This document shows, one piece after another, positions 5,716-57,998 of a DNA stretch of 64,000 nt (position 1 is its first letter; every line of letters starts with the position of its first letter). The stretch lies in the sequence record NC_106513.1; one strand, given 5' to 3'. A model generated the notes under the pieces. The model did not search any database, was not told the DNA's origin, and saw only the letters and a list, made by a program, of their open reading frames with translations. The DNA comes from Escherichia phage vB_EcoS_ESCO30. Position numbers and translations under genes: made by a program.

Positions 5716-6123
5716 ATGACTAACGTTAAAACCGCAAAATTTGCATGGAATGAAGAAAACACCCAAAAAGCTGTTTCTATGTATCAGCAATTAATCAACG
5801 AAAACGGTTTAGATTTCGCAAATAGCGACGGTTTAAAAGAGATTGCAAAAGCAGTGGGCGCGGCTTCTCCCGTGTCTGTTCGCTCAAAATTGACCAGCGC
5901 GAAAGCGTATCAGAAAAGCGATAAGCCTCGTAAAGTTGGCGGCGGTAGTTCTATCCGCAAAGCGCATTATGTGCGCGTTATTGCAAAACATGCGATCGAT
6001 TCCGGCATTATCAAAGACGCCGACGATCTGGCATCACTGGAAAGTGCAAAATTGGAAACGCTGGACGCCGTGGCGCAACTATTGGGCGTTGCCGATGAAG
6101 TAAAACAGGCCGCAGGCGAATAA
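5716..6123 (+). CDS. Putative HTH DNA-binding protein (135 aa)
   Basis: Motif EIAKAVGAASPVSVRSKLTSAK resembles the HTH module repeated in ORF 52460-53227. Confidence 0.5.
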   Translation: MTNVKTAKFAWNEENTQKAVSMYQQLINENGLDFANSDGLKEIAKAVGAASPVSVRSKLTSAKAYQKSDKPRKVGGGSSIRKAHYVRVIAKHAIDSGIIKDADDLASLESAKLETLDAVAQLLGVADEVKQAAGE

Positions 6124-49519: not shown

Positions 49520-50381
49520 CTAAAATTTCAATACGTTTTGCTAACATATCAATTTCATCTTTGTTTAAATCACCCGGATCTTTACCTTCAGGCAGAAGAA
49601 AGTTAGCAACTACAGGTATTAAACGCGTTTTTGTACGAATTAACTTGGCCAACGCTTGTGCAGCCTTATTACCAGAAGCATCATTATCTAGTAAGATAAC
49701 AACAACTTTTACACCAGCAATAATATAAGGGCTGAACTTATCCGCAATGTTATCCGAAGTAAACTGATGTGTACCAAAGCAGCAAGAAGCGTAGTCTATA
49801 CCACTATCTTCTAGATTCAGCATATCAAAGATACCCTCAACTAGAATAAGAACTGGAGTATTATATCGTACAGGAAAAATTGGTGGTGAAACTTGTTTTG
49901 GTTTTACTAAGTATTTAGGAGGGGCAGAACTGTTTATAGAACGACCCAAAAATAGGATATTGCGTCCAACAGCATCTGTGATTGGGAATACAATTCTGCC
50001 TTCCCAGTCTGCTTGGTGTTGGAAAGCAAAATATTTCTTCAAGGTCTTAGAACTTATACCTCGGAAATCACCTTCGAAAAGGTAAGCAGATTCAGGAATT
50101 GCAAGATTCGTTGATCCATTCCTAATCTCTGAAATCTTTTTACGTACTTGCGATAGCCTTGGGGACTGTCGGTACTGAGTCTCATTAAAATAATGGTAAA
50201 TGCTCGGTATACCTTTACCGAAGCCACAACTCAAGCAGTGCATAATACCTGTTTCAGGGTCAATACGCAAACTTGGGTGTTTATCGTCATGATCTGGATT
50301 TAAGCAACAGATTAAAATATCTCCACCAGTATCTTTATACTCAATTCCCTTAAGATCAAGTAATTCTGTTATTCTACTCAT
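49491..50381 (-). CDS. DnaG-like primase (296 aa)
   Basis: Zinc-binding CCLNPDH...CLSCGFGKG, TOPRIM-like acidic motifs. Confidence 0.65.
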   Translation of the reverse strand: MSRITELLDLKGIEYKDTGGDILICCLNPDHDDKHPSLRIDPETGIMHCLSCGFGKGIPSIYHYFNETQYRQSPRLSQVRKKISEIRNGSTNLAIPESAYLFEGDFRGISSKTLKKYFAFQHQADWEGRIVFPITDAVGRNILFLGRSINSSAPPKYLVKPKQVSPPIFPVRYNTPVLILVEGIFDMLNLEDSGIDYASCCFGTHQFTSDNIADKFSPYIIAGVKVVVILLDNDASGNKAAQALAKLIRTKTRLIPVVANFLLPEGKDPGDLNKDEIDMLAKRIEILVAESLKDLV

Positions 50382-50908
50382 GAATTTAGCTCCTCCAGTG
50401 AAGGATACTTAGTTGGATCAAAGATCTCTTGAACAGCATTTTCTCCATGTAATTGTAGACGTAGTTCATTGGCTTTAGTGACTGCAAGCTTTAGATCTGC
50501 GTAATTAAAGAGCCCACCGTGAACTTTTTCTCCCGTAGAATTTACTACTCTTACATGCCATTTGTGATCCCGCTTAAACCAGAAAACTCCCAAGTATCCA
50601 GATTTACTTCTAGCTGTTTTATTTCTACTATTTTCTTGCCGGGTGGATGGCCTAATATTAATCCATCTATTATCCCAAGTAATTCGATTAATATGGTCTA
50701 CTTCCTCTGGCATATATCCTTCCATATATAGGAAGGCTAGTTGGTGTGCAAAGTATAATTTTCTATCTACCTTTATCCGTATGTATCCACTATCTAGAGT
50801 ACCCGCAATACTACCAGCTTTCTGATTGCCTCTAGATACTTTTCTAGTAAACTCCCCAGTCTCTGGGGAGTAGTCAAACAGTTCTTTTAGTCGTTCCTGT
50901 GTTATCAT
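50378..50908 (-). CDS. HNH-AP2-type homing endonuclease (176 aa)
   Basis: HQLAFLYMEG...VDHINR...NIRPSTRQEN and AP2-like YLGVFW; inserted between primase and helicase. Confidence 0.65.
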   Translation of the reverse strand: MITQERLKELFDYSPETGEFTRKVSRGNQKAGSIAGTLDSGYIRIKVDRKLYFAHQLAFLYMEGYMPEEVDHINRITWDNRWINIRPSTRQENSRNKTARSKSGYLGVFWFKRDHKWHVRVVNSTGEKVHGGLFNYADLKLAVTKANELRLQLHGENAVQEIFDPTKYPSLEELNS

Positions 50909-52428
50909 ATATCGCTGGCCTGTTCACCTGTTGAATTTTCAGTTTTGTCTTTCTTAGCACGTTTAGGTTGAGCCGGCTTATCCTTCTCAATAGGGATAAC
51001 GAACTCAGCTTCCATTTGAGATATATCTTCCATTGCTAGGTTGGTAGTGTTATCCATTCGCAGAGTTTCCCAGTTCATCTTAGGCATAAACTTCACGCTA
51101 TCAGAAGAACGAGTTTTAACGAAGTCAAACATAATAGCACCTTGGCCATTATCAGCTTTTGCAGCATTAAGATTAGCAGCCATGTCTGCAGAATCAAGAA
51201 TCCCCTTTGACATACGTGTTCTACCATCTTGATCGATCTGGTAAGGAGCTACGCCAGCCACGTTATGTTTCTGGCAGATAGATTTGAAAGACGAGCTAAC
51301 AACCATCTGTTCTTTCCAGTCATACATATCAATGGTTTTAGAATCTGGAAGTCGGGTTTGGTTAATATAGTCCAGTAAAGCTACTGTAACTTTATCACCA
51401 TATCTAGCAACTAATTTATTTAGTTCTACGTCAACTGTTGTAATGGACAGCTCAGGATCATAAACAATAATCATAGGAGTATGTAGTTCATATCCCTCTA
51501 TTAGCTTACTCTCCATATCGTAGAAATCACTCATCTTAGCCATTGTGTACTGTTTAACGAAGTTATCAAAAAGCTCTTCACCTCCATTAAACATTCTAGC
51601 TCTAGTTCTGGCCAATCTCAACAGAGCTGCACCTTCTAGAGTATTATTACGCATTGCTAATGCTGATACACCAGCTAACATGGCTAGATTACGTCTAAAT
51701 ACTTCATGTTCTTTCATCTCAATTGAGAAGTATGGAGCAATATCTCCATTCAAATATTGCTGAACCTGTATGTTTGAACAGATAATGGATTTACCAGTAC
51801 CACGCCAACCACCAAGCAGTAACGTTTCTGTGCGAGCTAAACCGATTTGAGCGTCGAACTCATTACAAATACCAAGAGCGATTAAGTTCAGTTTGGTATC
51901 TTCTTCTCTCTGGAAAATACGCATGTTATCTGCGTTGAATACTTTTCCAGTATTCGTTACTTTCTCTTCTAATTTTAAGTGAAGGGAGGCAACTCGGTTG
52001 AGAATTTCTCCCTGATCCAGCATTGTTAAATCTTGAAGCACGTCTGTTTCTAGAAGCTTCAGGAATAAATCCTGTGTATATTCGGCTTCTAGGACTTCAA
52101 GTGCCTGTTCCATGCTCACTTCTGGAATTTGAGTGTTAGCTAAGACGACTAGAGCTTGAGAAAGGCGGGCGTTCCTATTAGCTTCAAGCATAAGTGCGTC
52201 AATGGACGGCATTGTGTTATATTTTTTATAATAATTCTGGACGGCTTGGTAAATTGAGGAGAAAGCGTCATTAAAATGATCTTTATGCAGTTTTGAGAAT
52301 GTTTCCAATGCTATTTGCTTCTGTTCGGAAGCTAGAAGCATCTTCAACACTACAGCTTGCACGTTAAACAAGGTCATTCTCCTTTGCACGCTTTCGTGCC
52401 TTCTAAATGCAAAAAGGGGAAGGAGCAT
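50905..52428 (-). CDS. DnaB-like replicative helicase (507 aa)
   Basis: RecA-like core with GTGKS P-loop; GGGGAGGGGG SD-like upstream. Confidence 0.65.
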   Translation of the reverse strand: MLLPLFAFRRHESVQRRMTLFNVQAVVLKMLLASEQKQIALETFSKLHKDHFNDAFSSIYQAVQNYYKKYNTMPSIDALMLEANRNARLSQALVVLANTQIPEVSMEQALEVLEAEYTQDLFLKLLETDVLQDLTMLDQGEILNRVASLHLKLEEKVTNTGKVFNADNMRIFQREEDTKLNLIALGICNEFDAQIGLARTETLLLGGWRGTGKSIICSNIQVQQYLNGDIAPYFSIEMKEHEVFRRNLAMLAGVSALAMRNNTLEGAALLRLARTRARMFNGGEELFDNFVKQYTMAKMSDFYDMESKLIEGYELHTPMIIVYDPELSITTVDVELNKLVARYGDKVTVALLDYINQTRLPDSKTIDMYDWKEQMVVSSSFKSICQKHNVAGVAPYQIDQDGRTRMSKGILDSADMAANLNAAKADNGQGAIMFDFVKTRSSDSVKFMPKMNWETLRMDNTTNLAMEDISQMEAEFVIPIEKDKPAQPKRAKKDKTENSTGEQASDI

Positions 52429-52459
52429 AGCCCCCTCCCCTTAGGTTTAATTTACCAGA

Positions 52460-53227
52460 TTATTCAGCAGCCGCAGCTTTTGCATCCAGTTTAGCACGCT
52501 TAGCGGCACCATCATAGTCCTTAGCAACCAGACCACGACGAGACAGCATAGATTTAACACCGCGCTCAGATTTACCAGTTTTCTCAGCGATCTCAGCAAC
52601 AGTCATGTTAACCAGATCCAGGCCTTCTAACAGATCTTCACGAGTTTTAGCACTTGAGGTTTCCTGTACCGGCATAGCAGCGATACGACCTTCACGAAGC
52701 AGACTCAGAGCTTTACCGCGGATCTGCTTGATATTACGACCGAAGTGAGCAGCGATAGCTTCAATAGTAGCACCAGCAACAACCTGATTAACAAAATCAG
52801 TTTCTTCATCCGGAGTGAAGGAACGAACAGCAGCAGCTTTTTCGGTTGGCTTAACAGAAGCGGTCATTTCCAGACTCAGGATCTTACCCTGTACCTGTTT
52901 AGCACCGAACTGACCACCAGCTACAGCAGCAGCGATTTCAGCATAGGTATACTGACCAGCATGAGCATTCAGGAAATCAACCAGTTCAGCTTCCTGCTCA
53001 GGAGTCCACGGGGATTTCTGTACTTCGTTAGCTTTTTGTACTTCGAAACCTTCTTTACGCAGCTTAGAGCCAACAGAGCGAGCGGTAACGTCTTTGCCAG
53101 TTTCAGCAGCCAGTTCAGCGGCGATAGCAGCTACTTGTTCTTGAGAGATTACATCAACACCCAGAGCAGTGGCTTTTGCTTTCAGAGACTCGGTTACACC
53201 TTCTACGTTCCAGTTCAGTTTAGACAT
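52460..53227 (-). CDS. DNA-binding protein with four tandem HTH (sigma region-4-like) repeats (255 aa)
   Basis: Four repeats of about 45 aa matching T-P-E/D-x-E...AEIAA...G...K.LSL...G read from the translation. Confidence 0.55.
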   Translation of the reverse strand: MSKLNWNVEGVTESLKAKATALGVDVISQEQVAAIAAELAAETGKDVTARSVGSKLRKEGFEVQKANEVQKSPWTPEQEAELVDFLNAHAGQYTYAEIAAAVAGGQFGAKQVQGKILSLEMTASVKPTEKAAAVRSFTPDEETDFVNQVVAGATIEAIAAHFGRNIKQIRGKALSLLREGRIAAMPVQETSSAKTREDLLEGLDLVNMTVAEIAEKTGKSERGVKSMLSRRGLVAKDYDGAAKRAKLDAKAAAAE

Positions 53228-53999
53228 TATTATTTTTCTCCAATAGTTCTTTAATCGACAGGATTTCTATCCCATTCGTTTCGGCTTTCTTATAAGATGA
53301 GGAAGAACGCTTCGATTCATCCTCACAGATTAGGTATTTGACGTCTTTGGTAACGGATTTCTTAACCGTATATCCTAGACCTTCTAAATAGTTTGTTGCA
53401 TCCGTTCTATTTGCAAAATCTTGCAAAGATCCGGTAATACACACCGTGATTCCATTTGGCTGGGCAACTAATTCATCTGTAATGATGTCAGCTTTAGCAC
53501 CCTTAATACCATTTGAGAATTTCCACGGTAGTTCGATAACATCCTTGCCTTGTGGGGAACTTAGCCAGGCTTTATAATTTTCTCCAGCCTTGCCGTCAGC
53601 CTTCACATCGTGGAAGCTAGTGCAATTTTGGGATAATTTCTTTGCTGCAACCTCTCCAATTAGAGGGATTCCTAAAGAACCGAGAACTGAACCAAAGTCA
53701 ATGTCTCCGCGAACTTTAGTATTTAATTCGCTAATTAACTTAGCGGCAACCTTGCTACCCACGGCTCTAACCAAATCTTCTTCGGTTAGGTAAAACAGTT
53801 CTGAAATCTTCGTCAGCTCCAGCTTCTCAATAGTTTTTGGGCCAAAGCCCTTTAACTTCATTTTTGAACAGAAGTTCTCAATTAACTTACTTGATTGCGC
53901 TGGACAGTTGGACTTATTCCGACAGAATAATTGTCCGTTGACAAGATCTAGCTTAGAACCACAAGAGGGACATTGTGTTGGAATTTCGATTTTCATCAA
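53220..53999 (-). CDS. NAD-dependent DNA ligase, C-terminal subunit (Zn finger, HhH, BRCT; 259 aa)
   Basis: CPSCGSKLD...CRNKSNCPAQ zinc finger, GFGPKTIEKL HhH; adjacent to adenylation subunit. Confidence 0.7.
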   Translation of the reverse strand: MMKIEIPTQCPSCGSKLDLVNGQLFCRNKSNCPAQSSKLIENFCSKMKLKGFGPKTIEKLELTKISELFYLTEEDLVRAVGSKVAAKLISELNTKVRGDIDFGSVLGSLGIPLIGEVAAKKLSQNCTSFHDVKADGKAGENYKAWLSSPQGKDVIELPWKFSNGIKGAKADIITDELVAQPNGITVCITGSLQDFANRTDATNYLEGLGYTVKKSVTKDVKYLICEDESKRSSSSYKKAETNGIEILSIKELLEKNNNV

Positions 54000-54026
54000 A
54001 TTTCTTCCTTATCAATTTATATAAAT

Positions 54027-54055
54027 ATTATAGCAAGTATTTAAGCATTTAGCAA
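54027..54055 (-). promoter_or_regulatory. Sigma70 promoter TTGCTA-17-TATAAT upstream of ligase C-terminal subunit
   Basis: Minus-strand reading. Confidence 0.6.
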
Positions 54056-54119: not shown

Positions 54120-54148
54120 AGTATATACCTAAGCGGCGAAAATGTCAA
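54120..54148 (-). promoter_or_regulatory. Sigma70 promoter TTGACA-17-TATACT
   Basis: Minus-strand reading; consensus -35. Confidence 0.55.
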
Positions 54149-55236: not shown

Positions 55237-55548
55237 TTATTCTTTTTCCGCCAGGCGTCTAGCTTCTTTTTCTACTTCTAATAAAACCTCACTATTAGAC
55301 AATATTTTAGTAAATGCCTTAAATAAATGAGATGTTGTTTCTAGAGTGTATGGCATACTGAATCCACTTTTTGTTGGAAACCATTCGCCTTCTATATCTT
55401 GGAGCCAGTACCTAATTCCTAAGTATAGATTCCCCCTAAACTCAGATACAGTTAGCCTAACCTGTTGGCCATCTTCTCTTTCCCAGATAACTATGGACTG
55501 ATCATCTACATGCCCAACATAATCCTGATTTACATTATCTCCCGACAT
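55237..55548 (-). CDS. PC4-like ssDNA-binding protein (103 aa)
   Basis: Segment RLTVSEFRGNLYLGIRYW...PTKSGFS resembles the PC4/p15 fold signature. Confidence 0.45.
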   Translation of the reverse strand: MSGDNVNQDYVGHVDDQSIVIWEREDGQQVRLTVSEFRGNLYLGIRYWLQDIEGEWFPTKSGFSMPYTLETTSHLFKAFTKILSNSEVLLEVEKEARRLAEKE

Positions 55549-56195
55549 TTTATTGCTCCCTGACTTAGGAGATATTCCTCTGCCTCCTCTGGTTGAATAT
55601 TAAAAAACTCAGTAGAACCATCAAATATTGATTCTGTAAATATCTGTGTAGTACTAAAAAATCTATGAGCTTTATTTTCTAGATTATACGCTGACTCATC
55701 ATAAGAGTATACTCCATGTATACTCAAGTCCTCCAGATTAGAGTCTTTTTTGATCTCTAAAAGTCTTCTATCTGGACTTTTAGATGTTCCTATTTTTGTT
55801 CCTAACCGTGGACTATAGAATATATACAAATAGCTTGTAGTTACACAAATAGGACAAGACCTTCCTGCATTTTTAACTTTATCCACGCTACTAGTCCACC
55901 TATGCCCCTCTGCACACTCGAATACTGCTTGACTATGTGCATTGATATAGGGAGGTATAAGTTTTATGCCTCTATTGGCTAATTGTTGATTTATTTGCTC
56001 TATAGTAAGTTTAGCTTTACCGCTACAATGTGGGCAACCACTGCCTTTTCTTATATTATTTAGGTATGCCTTCCACTGGTGGCCTTTTGAGCATCTAAAT
56101 ATGGCGGGTGTTCTTATGTTAATCCACTCACTTACTATACTAAAACCTCGCGGCTCTAATTCTTTATTTATTTGCTTTACTGTTAACTTTTTCAC
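55530..56195 (-). CDS. T5orf172-domain protein with two N-terminal zinc-ribbon repeats (221 aa)
   Basis: RCSKGHQWK...GCPHCS and ECAEGHRW...SCPICV repeats; C-terminal YLYIFYSPRLGTKIGTS; paralog of 15235-15915. Confidence 0.55.
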   Translation of the reverse strand: MKKLTVKQINKELEPRGFSIVSEWINIRTPAIFRCSKGHQWKAYLNNIRKGSGCPHCSGKAKLTIEQINQQLANRGIKLIPPYINAHSQAVFECAEGHRWTSSVDKVKNAGRSCPICVTTSYLYIFYSPRLGTKIGTSKSPDRRLLEIKKDSNLEDLSIHGVYSYDESAYNLENKAHRFFSTTQIFTESIFDGSTEFFNIQPEEAEEYLLSQGAIKCREIM

Positions 56196-56547: not shown

Positions 56548-56958
56548 TTACTTAGTGATAGCTCGGATCGCTTCTGCCAGATGAGCAGCCGCTTTACCGG
56601 TCAGTTTGTCGATAATTGCATCATCCAGAAAATCTGGTGCTAAGCCAGCATCAGAGAATGCTGAACGAAGGTCGGCATGGGCTTGAGCTTTGGAGGTACG
56701 AGAGCCACCGGAAGCTTTTTCTCCAGTAGATGCGCTAGATTTAGAAGCAGAACCAGCAGCTTTCTTAATATACAAGCCCGCTTTAGTCAGCTTCATACGA
56801 AAACCGTTCGGAGTTACACCATTTTCCTGGGCAATTTCGCTAACAATTTCCATGCTAACACTCGGACGTTCATCCTCTGGGAATTGCTCCATACGAGCAA
56901 CGTATTCGGAAGACATTTTTTCGAACAGTTCATCAGTCCACTGAGTTGGAGTAGTCAT
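56548..56958 (-). CDS. Putative HTH DNA-binding protein (136 aa)
   Basis: Single copy of the EIAQENGVTPNGFRMKLTKAG module seen in ORF 52460-53227. Confidence 0.45.
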   Translation of the reverse strand: MTTPTQWTDELFEKMSSEYVARMEQFPEDERPSVSMEIVSEIAQENGVTPNGFRMKLTKAGLYIKKAAGSASKSSASTGEKASGGSRTSKAQAHADLRSAFSDAGLAPDFLDDAIIDKLTGKAAAHLAEAIRAITK

Positions 56959-57064: not shown

Positions 57065-57325
57065 CTACACGTCTAGCTCAACAATCTCCCAATCATCCGC
57101 TAGAGCTTCATCTAGAGTTAATTCAACCTCTTCATCACTGGGCAGCAGCGTAGTATCTGAAGGCATCCACACGTACTGGCGTACAGTATTGCTGTCTACG
57201 TCAAATTTCAATAGTACAGTATACTCTCTATTATTTTCCCAGCTATCCCGCTGGAGATATTTTACTTCCCCATCTTTAAGTAAATCAGTTAGTCTACTCA
57301 CGGCGTTTTCCTTTTTCTTTATCAA
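57065..57325 (-). CDS. Hypothetical acidic protein (86 aa)
   Basis: ORF only. Confidence 0.4.
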   Translation of the reverse strand: MIKKKENAVSRLTDLLKDGEVKYLQRDSWENNREYTVLLKFDVDSNTVRQYVWMPSDTTLLPSDEEVELTLDEALADDWEIVELDV

Positions 57326-57998
57326 GTTTCAAGGCGGCCTTAACAGCTTCGTTAATCAACGTAATGACTTCTTCCCGAGTCCACTTATACCCCAGAGACT
57401 TTACATCAACCCCTAACTTTTCCAGGTGTTTAACAGAAGCCAGTTCATAATTCATATAATGAACGTTCTGTTGTTTGCCTTCTGATAGAAGCCATACACG
57501 GTAACAACCAACAGGGTTATCCATTGCTTTTTTGATTTCACCGATACACTGGTATCCAGGAACCCAAACAAGCTCACCTACCTCAAATTCTTCTGCTACA
57601 GCATCGTCAGGAATAATTGGTGGATTCAATGGATCTACAATATCGTTCAAACGAAGTAGAGCACCATATCGTTCCAGAACAGATTTAACCATTGCTACAG
57701 AGCGATAATTACGATCGGCAATCTCTTCAAAAGAATCACCAGATAAATACTGCTCAATAACGTTGGCTAACTCAATGCCTTCAATGAGTGTGCCACGTTT
57801 CTTTTTCTTCATCTCGGCAACTTGAATTTGGCGATCTTGCCACTCTTCAATCATCCTTTCCATAGTTGGATTGGAGGATACTCCGAGCATTTCACATGCT
57901 GCTTTCTTAGTACCACCGTTCTCCAGATGCTCTATAACTTTTTTAAAGACTTCATCCGGGATTTCATGGATATGTTTCTTTCTGCGAGAACCAGCCAT
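57294..57998 (-). CDS. Putative HTH-containing early regulator (234 aa)
   Basis: HTH-like GTKKAACEMLGVSSNPTMERMI; first gene downstream of the P_N25-like promoter. Confidence 0.55.
   Translation of the reverse strand: MAGSRRKKHIHEIPDEVFKKVIEHLENGGTKKAACEMLGVSSNPTMERMIEEWQDRQIQVAEMKKKKRGTLIEGIELANVIEQYLSGDSFEEIADRNYRSVAMVKSVLERYGALLRLNDIVDPLNPPIIPDDAVAEEFEVGELVWVPGYQCIGEIKKAMDNPVGCYRVWLLSEGKQQNVHYMNYELASVKHLEKLGVDVKSLGYKWTREEVITLINEAVKAALKLDKEKGKRRE

Follow-up and report, generated by a model that had tools for sequence, protein, structure and literature searches.

Gene D5 of a T5-like phage: a predicted array of four helix-turn-helix modules with single-module relatives in A2 and D3

The window analysed here is the whole of a 64,000-nt stretch of DNA from Escherichia phage vB_EcoS_ESCO30 (NC_106513.1). 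Positions 52000-54000 match T5-like genomes (Tequintavirus; hundreds, including BF23 and many Salmonella phages) at 98-98.6% nucleotide identity, and the T5 left terminal repeat with A2 and A1 matches window 5.3-6.5 kb at 92% identity; these matches identify the window as the left-hand portion of a T5-like genome. The ORF under study is flanked by ligB (53220-53999) on one side and a DnaB-like helicase ORF (50905-52428) on the other, which bears out its earlier placement between helicase and ligase genes. The ORF and the elements that bear on its expression are as follows.

52460-53227, minus strand: gene D5 (T5.118 orthologue); ATG start, 255 aa, 27.1 kDa, pI 6.3, no cysteine; predicted four-module helix-turn-helix (HTH) DNA-binding protein.
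53220-53999, minus strand: ligB (NAD ligase subunit B), the end of which overlaps the start of D5 by 8 nt.
54027-54055, minus strand: sigma-70 promoter-like site upstream of ligB, TTGCTA-17-TATAAT with TG, at the position of T5 promoter P-K28a.
54120-54148, minus strand: sigma-70 promoter-like site, TTGACA-17-TATACT, at the position of T5 promoter P-K28b.
52414-52442, minus strand: intrinsic-terminator-like hairpin 18 nt past the D5 stop, with a 13-bp GC-rich stem and a U-run (-24.1 kcal/mol, z=-3.05).

The 255-aa ORF is gene D5 of a T5-like phage. Its product is equal in length to T5 protein T5.118/T5p116 and 100% identical to it over aa 1-240, and it matches phrog_323 ('transcriptional regulator, D5-like') with E=1.2e-71 over aa 1-253. 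The gene order ligB-D5-helicase is common to the window, BF23 and T5, and the corresponding slot in BF23 is labelled 'transcription factor D5'. The note on T5.118 in AY543070 reads 'D5 protein; DNA-binding protein; required for DNA replication and late transcription; also involved in shutoff...'. The title of a 1979 paper by McCorquodale is further support. Amino acid identity, phrog_323, synteny and the AY543070 annotation together make correct the suggestion in a preliminary description that the ORF is possibly the T5 D5-type DNA-binding protein. The gene itself is already known, and has been since the 1970s, as that of a DNA-binding protein needed for late transcription. The protein is 17% alanine, with 34 lysines and arginines against 35 aspartates and glutamates. 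Phage records number 901 for D5, 891 for A2 and 590 for D3, and all three are widespread in T5-like phages.

The 8-nt overlap suggests that ligB and D5 share a transcription unit, and a GGAG is present 10 nt upstream of the D5 start. Judged from these signals, a short ligB-D5 unit with strong promoters seems to end with D5, and a 'terminator' feature is annotated in phage HASG4 under the match to the hairpin downstream of D5. Strong promoters and a terminator of its own would fit the abundance of D5, which is described as 'very abundant in lysates' of BF23 and T5 (PMC10644984) and is a major co-purifying protein in phiR2-01 preparations (PMC8624392). The same hairpin holds the first ATG (52428) of the 507-aa helicase ORF, so the true start of the helicase is probably further downstream. 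The length of the T5 helicase gene is disputed between records (1524 bp in AY692264, 1509 bp in AY543070).

Public T5 records also conflict on which ORFs are 'D3', 'D5' and 'D6', a conflict exposed here. In AY692264, the helicase is named 'D5', the primase 'D6' and the 234-aa ORF 'D3', and the 255-aa ORF is just a 'putative transcription factor (Myb-like)'. In AY543070, D5 is the 255-aa ORF, D3 the 136-aa ORF and D2 the 234-aa ORF. For the region equivalent to window 50-58 kb, it is the AY543070 scheme that fits mass, abundance and the residue numbers of the preprint discussed below. Several neighbouring ORFs in this region were noted.

50378-50908, minus strand: HNH_3 endonuclease ORF between helicase and primase; in T5, hegJ (T5.120).
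55237-55548, minus strand: ORF two genes away from D3 that encodes a PC4-type ssDNA-binding domain (transcriptional coactivator p15); T5 has the same arrangement (T5.115/T5p113).
55530-56195, minus strand: 221-aa ORF with two DUF4379 treble-clef zinc-finger stretches, a CapR-homology match and a MUG113/T5orf172 (GIY-YIG-like) domain.
57065-57325, minus strand: 86-aa ORF with a sub-threshold Tad2-like (Thoeris anti-defence 2) match (E 5.5e-4, 20.8 bits against a cut-off of 25).
57294-57998, minus strand: 234-aa 'D2' ORF with a weak HTH_28 match at aa 79-113 and an hhalign probability of 42% to D5 module 4.

BF23 has no counterpart of the HNH_3 ORF, and its primase gene comes immediately after the helicase gene. 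The 221-aa ORF is inserted between the PC4-like gene and a 96-aa ORF; as no ORF is annotated there in T5 or BF23, it is probably a mobile, homing-endonuclease-like gene. The PC4-type ORF represents another small nucleic-acid-binding protein of the early cluster. Pfam detects no helicase domain in the D2 ORF, despite the BF23 label 'D2 helicase', and with its weak HTH_28 match and its 42% hhalign value D2 was not counted as a further relative of the D5 modules.

An AlphaFold2 (AF2) model of D5 was built on a 39-sequence alignment. Its pLDDT is 91.8 and its pTM 0.48: confidence is high for the domains but does not extend to the placement of the modules relative to one another. Five segments can be delimited in the model.

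53042-53218, minus strand: module 1 (aa 4-62), tri-helical HTH with helices at 11-22, 29-43 and 49-58; invariant W6, R50, K55, L56 and R57; the module most like the A2 and D3 N-termini.
52862-53011, minus strand: module 2 (aa 73-122), tri-helical, Myb/GcrA-like HTH with helices at 76-88, 95-101 and 109-118; W74; invariant Q113, G114, K115 and L117.
52682-52822, minus strand: module 3 (aa 136-182), tri-helical HTH with helices at 139-150, 155-162 and 166-178; a clear duplicate of module 2; invariant E156, G171, K172 and L174.
52520-52645, minus strand: module 4 (aa 195-236), two-helix HTH with helices at 210-217 and 221-231 and a non-helical N-terminal arm; the first helix is not formed in the model.
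52466-52510, minus strand: C-terminal Ala/Lys-rich tail helix (aa 240-254) of the AF2 model.

As modelled, D5 is an assembly of three complete three-helix HTH modules, one two-helix HTH and a tail helix. HTH modules are thus what structure prediction returns (pLDDT 91.8), in keeping with the fold that had been claimed for the protein. A literature search found no published account of a four-module architecture for D5.

The modules can also be recognized as repeats. 'A-x-I-A' anchors stand at aa 33, 96, 156 and 211, with spacings of 63, 60 and 55, and helix 3 bears a G/S-K-x-L motif at 53, 114 and 171. The earlier estimate of 45-50 aa per repeat holds for the core modules, whereas the period including linkers is 55-68 aa. 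The repeat-to-repeat alignment that had been proposed as a check was run, and the R2-R3 pair proved strong and the other pairs weaker. In a single-sequence test (segment-wise Smith-Waterman against 1000 shuffles), R2-R3 reached z=7.3 (0/1000) and R1-R4 z=4.3 (1/1000), R2-R4 and R3-R4 were marginal (z about 2.7), and R1-R2 (z=-0.1) and R1-R3 (z=1.5) showed no significance. Profile comparison with hhalign, using an alignment of 118 full-length D5 homologues, gave probabilities of 96.3% (E=2e-9) for R2-R3, 65% for R3-R4, 56% for R1-R2, 49% for R1-R4, 31% for R1-R3 and 10% for R2-R4, the link of R1 to R2 and R3 coming from profiles and structure and not from single sequences. Single-module HMMs cross-match other D5 modules, and module 4 is degenerate. 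A BLASTP search of D5 against itself returned the identity match alone. No DNA-level repeat of matching period was found in the D5 gene, and the duplication of the modules should therefore be old.

With 17% alanine in the protein, and with R1-R2 and R1-R3 among the single-sequence pairs that lack significance, the apparent repeats could be imagined to be a by-product of an Ala-rich, helix-prone composition, with no true duplication. This explanation is highly improbable and was rejected: the R2-R3 pair stands out in both tests (z=7.3; hhalign 96.3%), the helix pattern recurs in the model, conserved anchor residues occupy equivalent positions in the modules, relatives of D5 differ by whole modules, and A2 and D3 hold independent single copies of the module. 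The four consecutive repeats of the preliminary description are, with anchors at four sites, real.

Whole-module differences are found among divergent relatives of the D5 family, in which module HMMs identify five-module proteins. In one of these relatives (P0242, 309 aa) module 2 is duplicated, and two others (P0302, P0313) have other module orders; the five-module relatives and the altered orders indicate that the module is the duplicating unit. Long proteins of 515-1570 aa were also encountered, in which the D5 profile matches 6-10 separate stretches that Pfam reads as Myb, HTH_7 or HTH_23 arrays, and one such long relative has a near-threshold GcrA match (25.2 bits against 26.9). The D5-family and long relatives comprise P0242, P0302, P0313, P0355, P0368, P0373 and P0387.

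Two further ORFs in the window, reported earlier as single-module relatives of D5, are indeed such relatives and correspond to A2 and D3.

5716-6123, plus strand: gene A2, pre-early, 135 aa; N-terminal D5-like HTH (about aa 7-62, nt 5734-5901), basic 'KVGGGSSxRKAHY' linker and C-terminal helical domain.
56548-56958, minus strand: gene D3, early, 136 aa; N-terminal tri-helical HTH with helices at 9-24, 31-46 and 50-60 (nt 56773-56946), disordered linker (aa 68-86) and C-terminal three-helix domain.

The second of these is the ORF named D3 in AY543070 and BF23. Both proteins match PHROG 1725, 'DNA binding protein' (E=4.3e-52 for A2 and 5.8e-50 for D3), and their family profiles align to each other with an hhalign probability of 91.7%. 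By the same method, D5 module 1 reaches 96.5% (E=8e-10) with the N-terminal domain of A2; for the D3 family the values are 75% with module 1 and 50% with module 4. Full-length D5 has no phrog_1725 match, though its module 1 and the A2 N-terminal domain align at that 96.5%. A joint alignment gives a common plan, with a 'W-x-E-E' start, an 'E-I-A' helix 2 and an 'R-x-K-L' helix 3, followed by a basic or Gly-Ser linker and a separate C-terminal helical domain. The AF2 model of D3 has a pLDDT of 76, and its top fold match is the DNA-binding domain (DBD) of GcrA. Precomputed PF26822 annotations exist for A2-family proteins, for several D5 homologues and for some of the D3 proteins, which is consistent with a common module. 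By these profile comparisons, A2 and D3 are paralogues of each other, and their N-terminal domain is homologous to D5 module 1. No published A2/D3/D5 paralogy was found in a literature search. A2 has been reported to bind dsDNA as a dimer, to associate with A1 and to be indispensable for second-step DNA transfer.

The preliminary description had likened the repeat core to a sigma-70 region 4-type HTH. This description fits module 4, on which Sigma70_r4_2 (PF08281) scores 26.4 bits in isolation and 28.6 bits on the whole of D5, against a cut-off of 25.7. It does not extend to modules 1-3, which, like the module of A2 and D3, are nearer to the GcrA DBD and to Myb-like tri-helical HTHs. Module 4 is the sole D5 module above a curated Pfam threshold, and the match spans 27 residues, which is the HTH proper; modules 1-3 have sub-threshold Pfam matches to HTH_33, Myb, HTH_23 and EutK_C. 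For sigma region 3, Pfam gave no passing stretch in D5 (Sigma70_r3, 20.5 against 25.3), and for region 2 no match. NCBIfam yielded nothing useful on D5, with TIGR02937 at 12.6, far under its threshold of 42.9. With regions 2 and 3 absent and modules 1-3 below threshold, the profile searches indicate that D5 is not a sigma factor.

The module 4 match could be taken further, to a scheme in which this module mimics sigma-70 region 4 through beta-flap or -35 binding, the holoenzyme is remodelled in an appropriator-like manner, and modules 1-3 serve mainly as protein-interaction scaffolds. That no other part of D5 passes a curated Pfam threshold would be its chief attraction. The match is nevertheless limited to 27 residues of the HTH itself, Sigma70_r3 is sub-threshold and region 2 absent, many unrelated HTH families score similarly, and GcrA-like DNA-contact positions are conserved in modules 1-3, which argues for DNA binding by these modules and not a scaffold role. 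The scheme is accordingly given little credence.

The closest solved structure to D5 modules 1-3 is the GcrA DBD, with Myb-like folds next. The GcrA sequence was confirmed from PDB 7ye1/5yiu, and a GcrA-DBD profile made from 72 distinct viral homologues matches D5 modules 1, 2, 3 and 4 with probabilities of 89%, 91%, 73% and 13%. The GcrA HMM itself, PF07750, has no match on D5, on the isolated modules, on A2 or on D3, even at E<=10. HMMER searches of PDB sequences, both profile and single-sequence, retrieved designed engrailed homeodomains (E=0.0014) and a weak Myb21 only, and did not find GcrA. Judged by sequence, then, D5 is not a member of the GcrA family, and a literature search found no published likeness of D5 to the GcrA DBD.

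Crystal structures of GcrA on DNA show a monomeric DBD whose HTH (alpha2-alpha3) occupies the major groove, with DNA contacts at W3, W15, S20-S22, T32, N34, I37, G38, K39, H41 and R42 (PMC5887438). GcrA W3 aligns with D5 W6 and W74, and the helix-3 contacts align with G53-S54-K55-R57-K58 in module 1, Q113-G114-K115-L117-S118 in module 2 and R170-G171-K172-L174 in module 3. Positions of D5 aligned to GcrA contacts are mostly 84-100% conserved among the 118 homologues. As these conserved residues coincide with DNA-contact positions of GcrA, helix 3 of modules 1-3 is likely to be the DNA-recognition helix.

Mutational data that bear on these positions come from a recent preprint, in which T5 D5 is the trigger of retron-Kva2, a type IX retron (bioRxiv 10.64898/2026.07.11.737809, July 2026). 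There, D5 is monomeric, at about 26 kDa by mass photometry, a value that the calculated mass of 27.1 kDa fits, and its binding of the msDNA stem-loop is credited to 'a helix-turn-helix motif'. D2, D3 and D5 are all mutated in retron-escape phages, with G53D, W74*, V149I and G232D in D5 and E30Q and G85D in D3 (10.64898/2026.07.11.737809). The residues affected by the D5 and D3 mutations are present in the proteins of the window, and in the alignment D5 G53 corresponds to I37 of GcrA and V149 to W15, both of them DNA-contact positions. The W74 codon lies at window 53006-53008; escape phage T5.1 carries W74*, which would leave module 1 alone. The module common to D3 and D5 may explain why the two are mutated together in escape phages.

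Taken together, T5-like D5 is probably an abundant early four-module HTH dsDNA binder that acts with high avidity and low specificity in coating or organizing phage DNA. Short linkers connect its three complete modules of GcrA-DBD/Myb type and its one sigma-r4.2-like module. The dsDNA binding, the requirement in late transcription, the abundance and the monomeric state are taken from the literature; one groove per module and an architectural, low-specificity mode are what we infer. Rice et al. in 1979 and Fujimura & Roop in 1983 are said to have described cooperative binding of D5 to duplex DNA. Most likely, the third helix of each module, with its conserved R/Q-G-K-x-L motif, would be placed in the DNA major groove. 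A single D5 monomer could then contact several, and up to four, successive grooves, giving high avidity with little sequence specificity. Coating or organizing the DNA in this way would alter the accessibility of the template for sigma-70 RNA polymerase and for the T5 polymerase, and the outcome would be the classical D5 phenotypes, in which late genes are turned on, early genes are turned off and replication is modulated. A2 and D3, with one copy of the module on a different C-terminal domain, would be paralogues of single valency, at work in the pre-early and early stages.

Some observations sit less easily with this proposal. D5 is near-neutral (pI 6.3), which is unusual for a non-specific DNA-coating protein, and the inter-module geometry on which multivalent binding would depend is not predicted (pTM 0.48). 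Module 4 is modelled without its helix 1 and may be unable to bind DNA, and the Pfam GcrA model has no match on D5. The W74* escape phage is puzzling, since modules 2-4 of a supposedly required protein would be lost.

A more specific role has also to be weighed, in which D5 activates T5 late promoters together with the sigma-70 holoenzyme, as GcrA does, one or two modules reading a promoter-proximal element and the others, or the tail, contacting RNA polymerase. The closest solved structure to the modules belongs to just such a monomeric activator accompanying sigma-70, late transcription requires D5 according to the AY543070 note, and the switching of T5 gene classes is stated to be unknown (PMC7472727). 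However, D5 contains no cysteine, and so lacks the CCCH zinc sigma-interacting domain of GcrA (A2 and D3 likewise contain none), and the very high abundance of D5 is better suited to a stoichiometric DNA coat. The classical work on D5 reportedly found cooperative, non-specific dsDNA binding, which counts against a promoter-specific activator. Specific activation is unlikely; abundance and the missing sigma-interacting domain weaken both this account and the mimicry of sigma region 4.

A broader and rather speculative proposal, for which the odds are judged to be low, is that the three proteins A2, D3 and D5 constitute a group of paralogues peculiar to the Demerecviridae, all based on a GcrA-type DNA-binding module and serving the pre-early, early and early-to-late stages. 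D5, the four-module version, would here be the missing late switch, reading a feature of replicating, nicked or modified phage DNA and licensing sigma-70 RNA polymerase at late promoters, a task beyond simple coating of the DNA. GcrA, which reads the methylation state of DNA, would offer a parallel for the reading of a phage DNA feature by D5.

What is added here to the coating and organizing protein favoured above is an anatomy: four HTH modules whose recognition-helix motifs are defined, a module homologous to the N-termini of A2 and D3, and the GcrA DBD as the nearest solved structure. The T5 early-to-late transcription switch is still called unknown (PMC7472727), and this anatomy provides a residue-level set of mutants with which to approach it, namely K55, K115, K172 and R230/R231, along with module deletions.

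Comparison with known systems places D5 as follows. The product of T5 gene D5 is the same protein as that of the window ORF, and no difference in function is expected, although the phage of the window differs from T5 in nucleotide sequence and in neighbouring mobile ORFs. A2 and D3 each have one module, a linker and a separate C-terminal domain where D5 has four modules, and the role reported for A2 differs from that of D5. Sigma-70 region 4.2 resembles D5 module 4 in HTH sequence pattern but, unlike D5, is accompanied by sigma regions 2 and 3. The DBD of Caulobacter GcrA (PDB 5yiu/5yiv; N-terminus of PF07750) has the layout 'W-T-x-E ... I-A ... G-K-x-x-x-L' in common with D5. GcrA combines one DBD with a CCCH zinc sigma-70-interacting domain (PMC5887438), whereas D5 has four modules and no such domain, and the preference of GcrA for m6A-GANTC sites is not implied for D5.

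Myb/SANT repeats (c-Myb R2R3; PF00249, PF13921) are the other close parallel. The Orsay T5 record already carries a 'Myb-like DNA-binding domain' for D5, weak Pfam and PDB sequence matches of D5 to Myb were found, and distant matches of the D5 profile are multi-Myb proteins. D5 scores 17.6 bits with PF00249, below the threshold of 24.4. Myb has three regularly spaced tryptophans per repeat, whereas D5 has one per module at most, W6 and W74 being the only two in the whole protein. Like D5, however, Myb/SANT proteins carry tandem, tri-helical HTH repeats of ~50 aa that start with W-T-x-E-E, and these tandem repeats bind successive major grooves.
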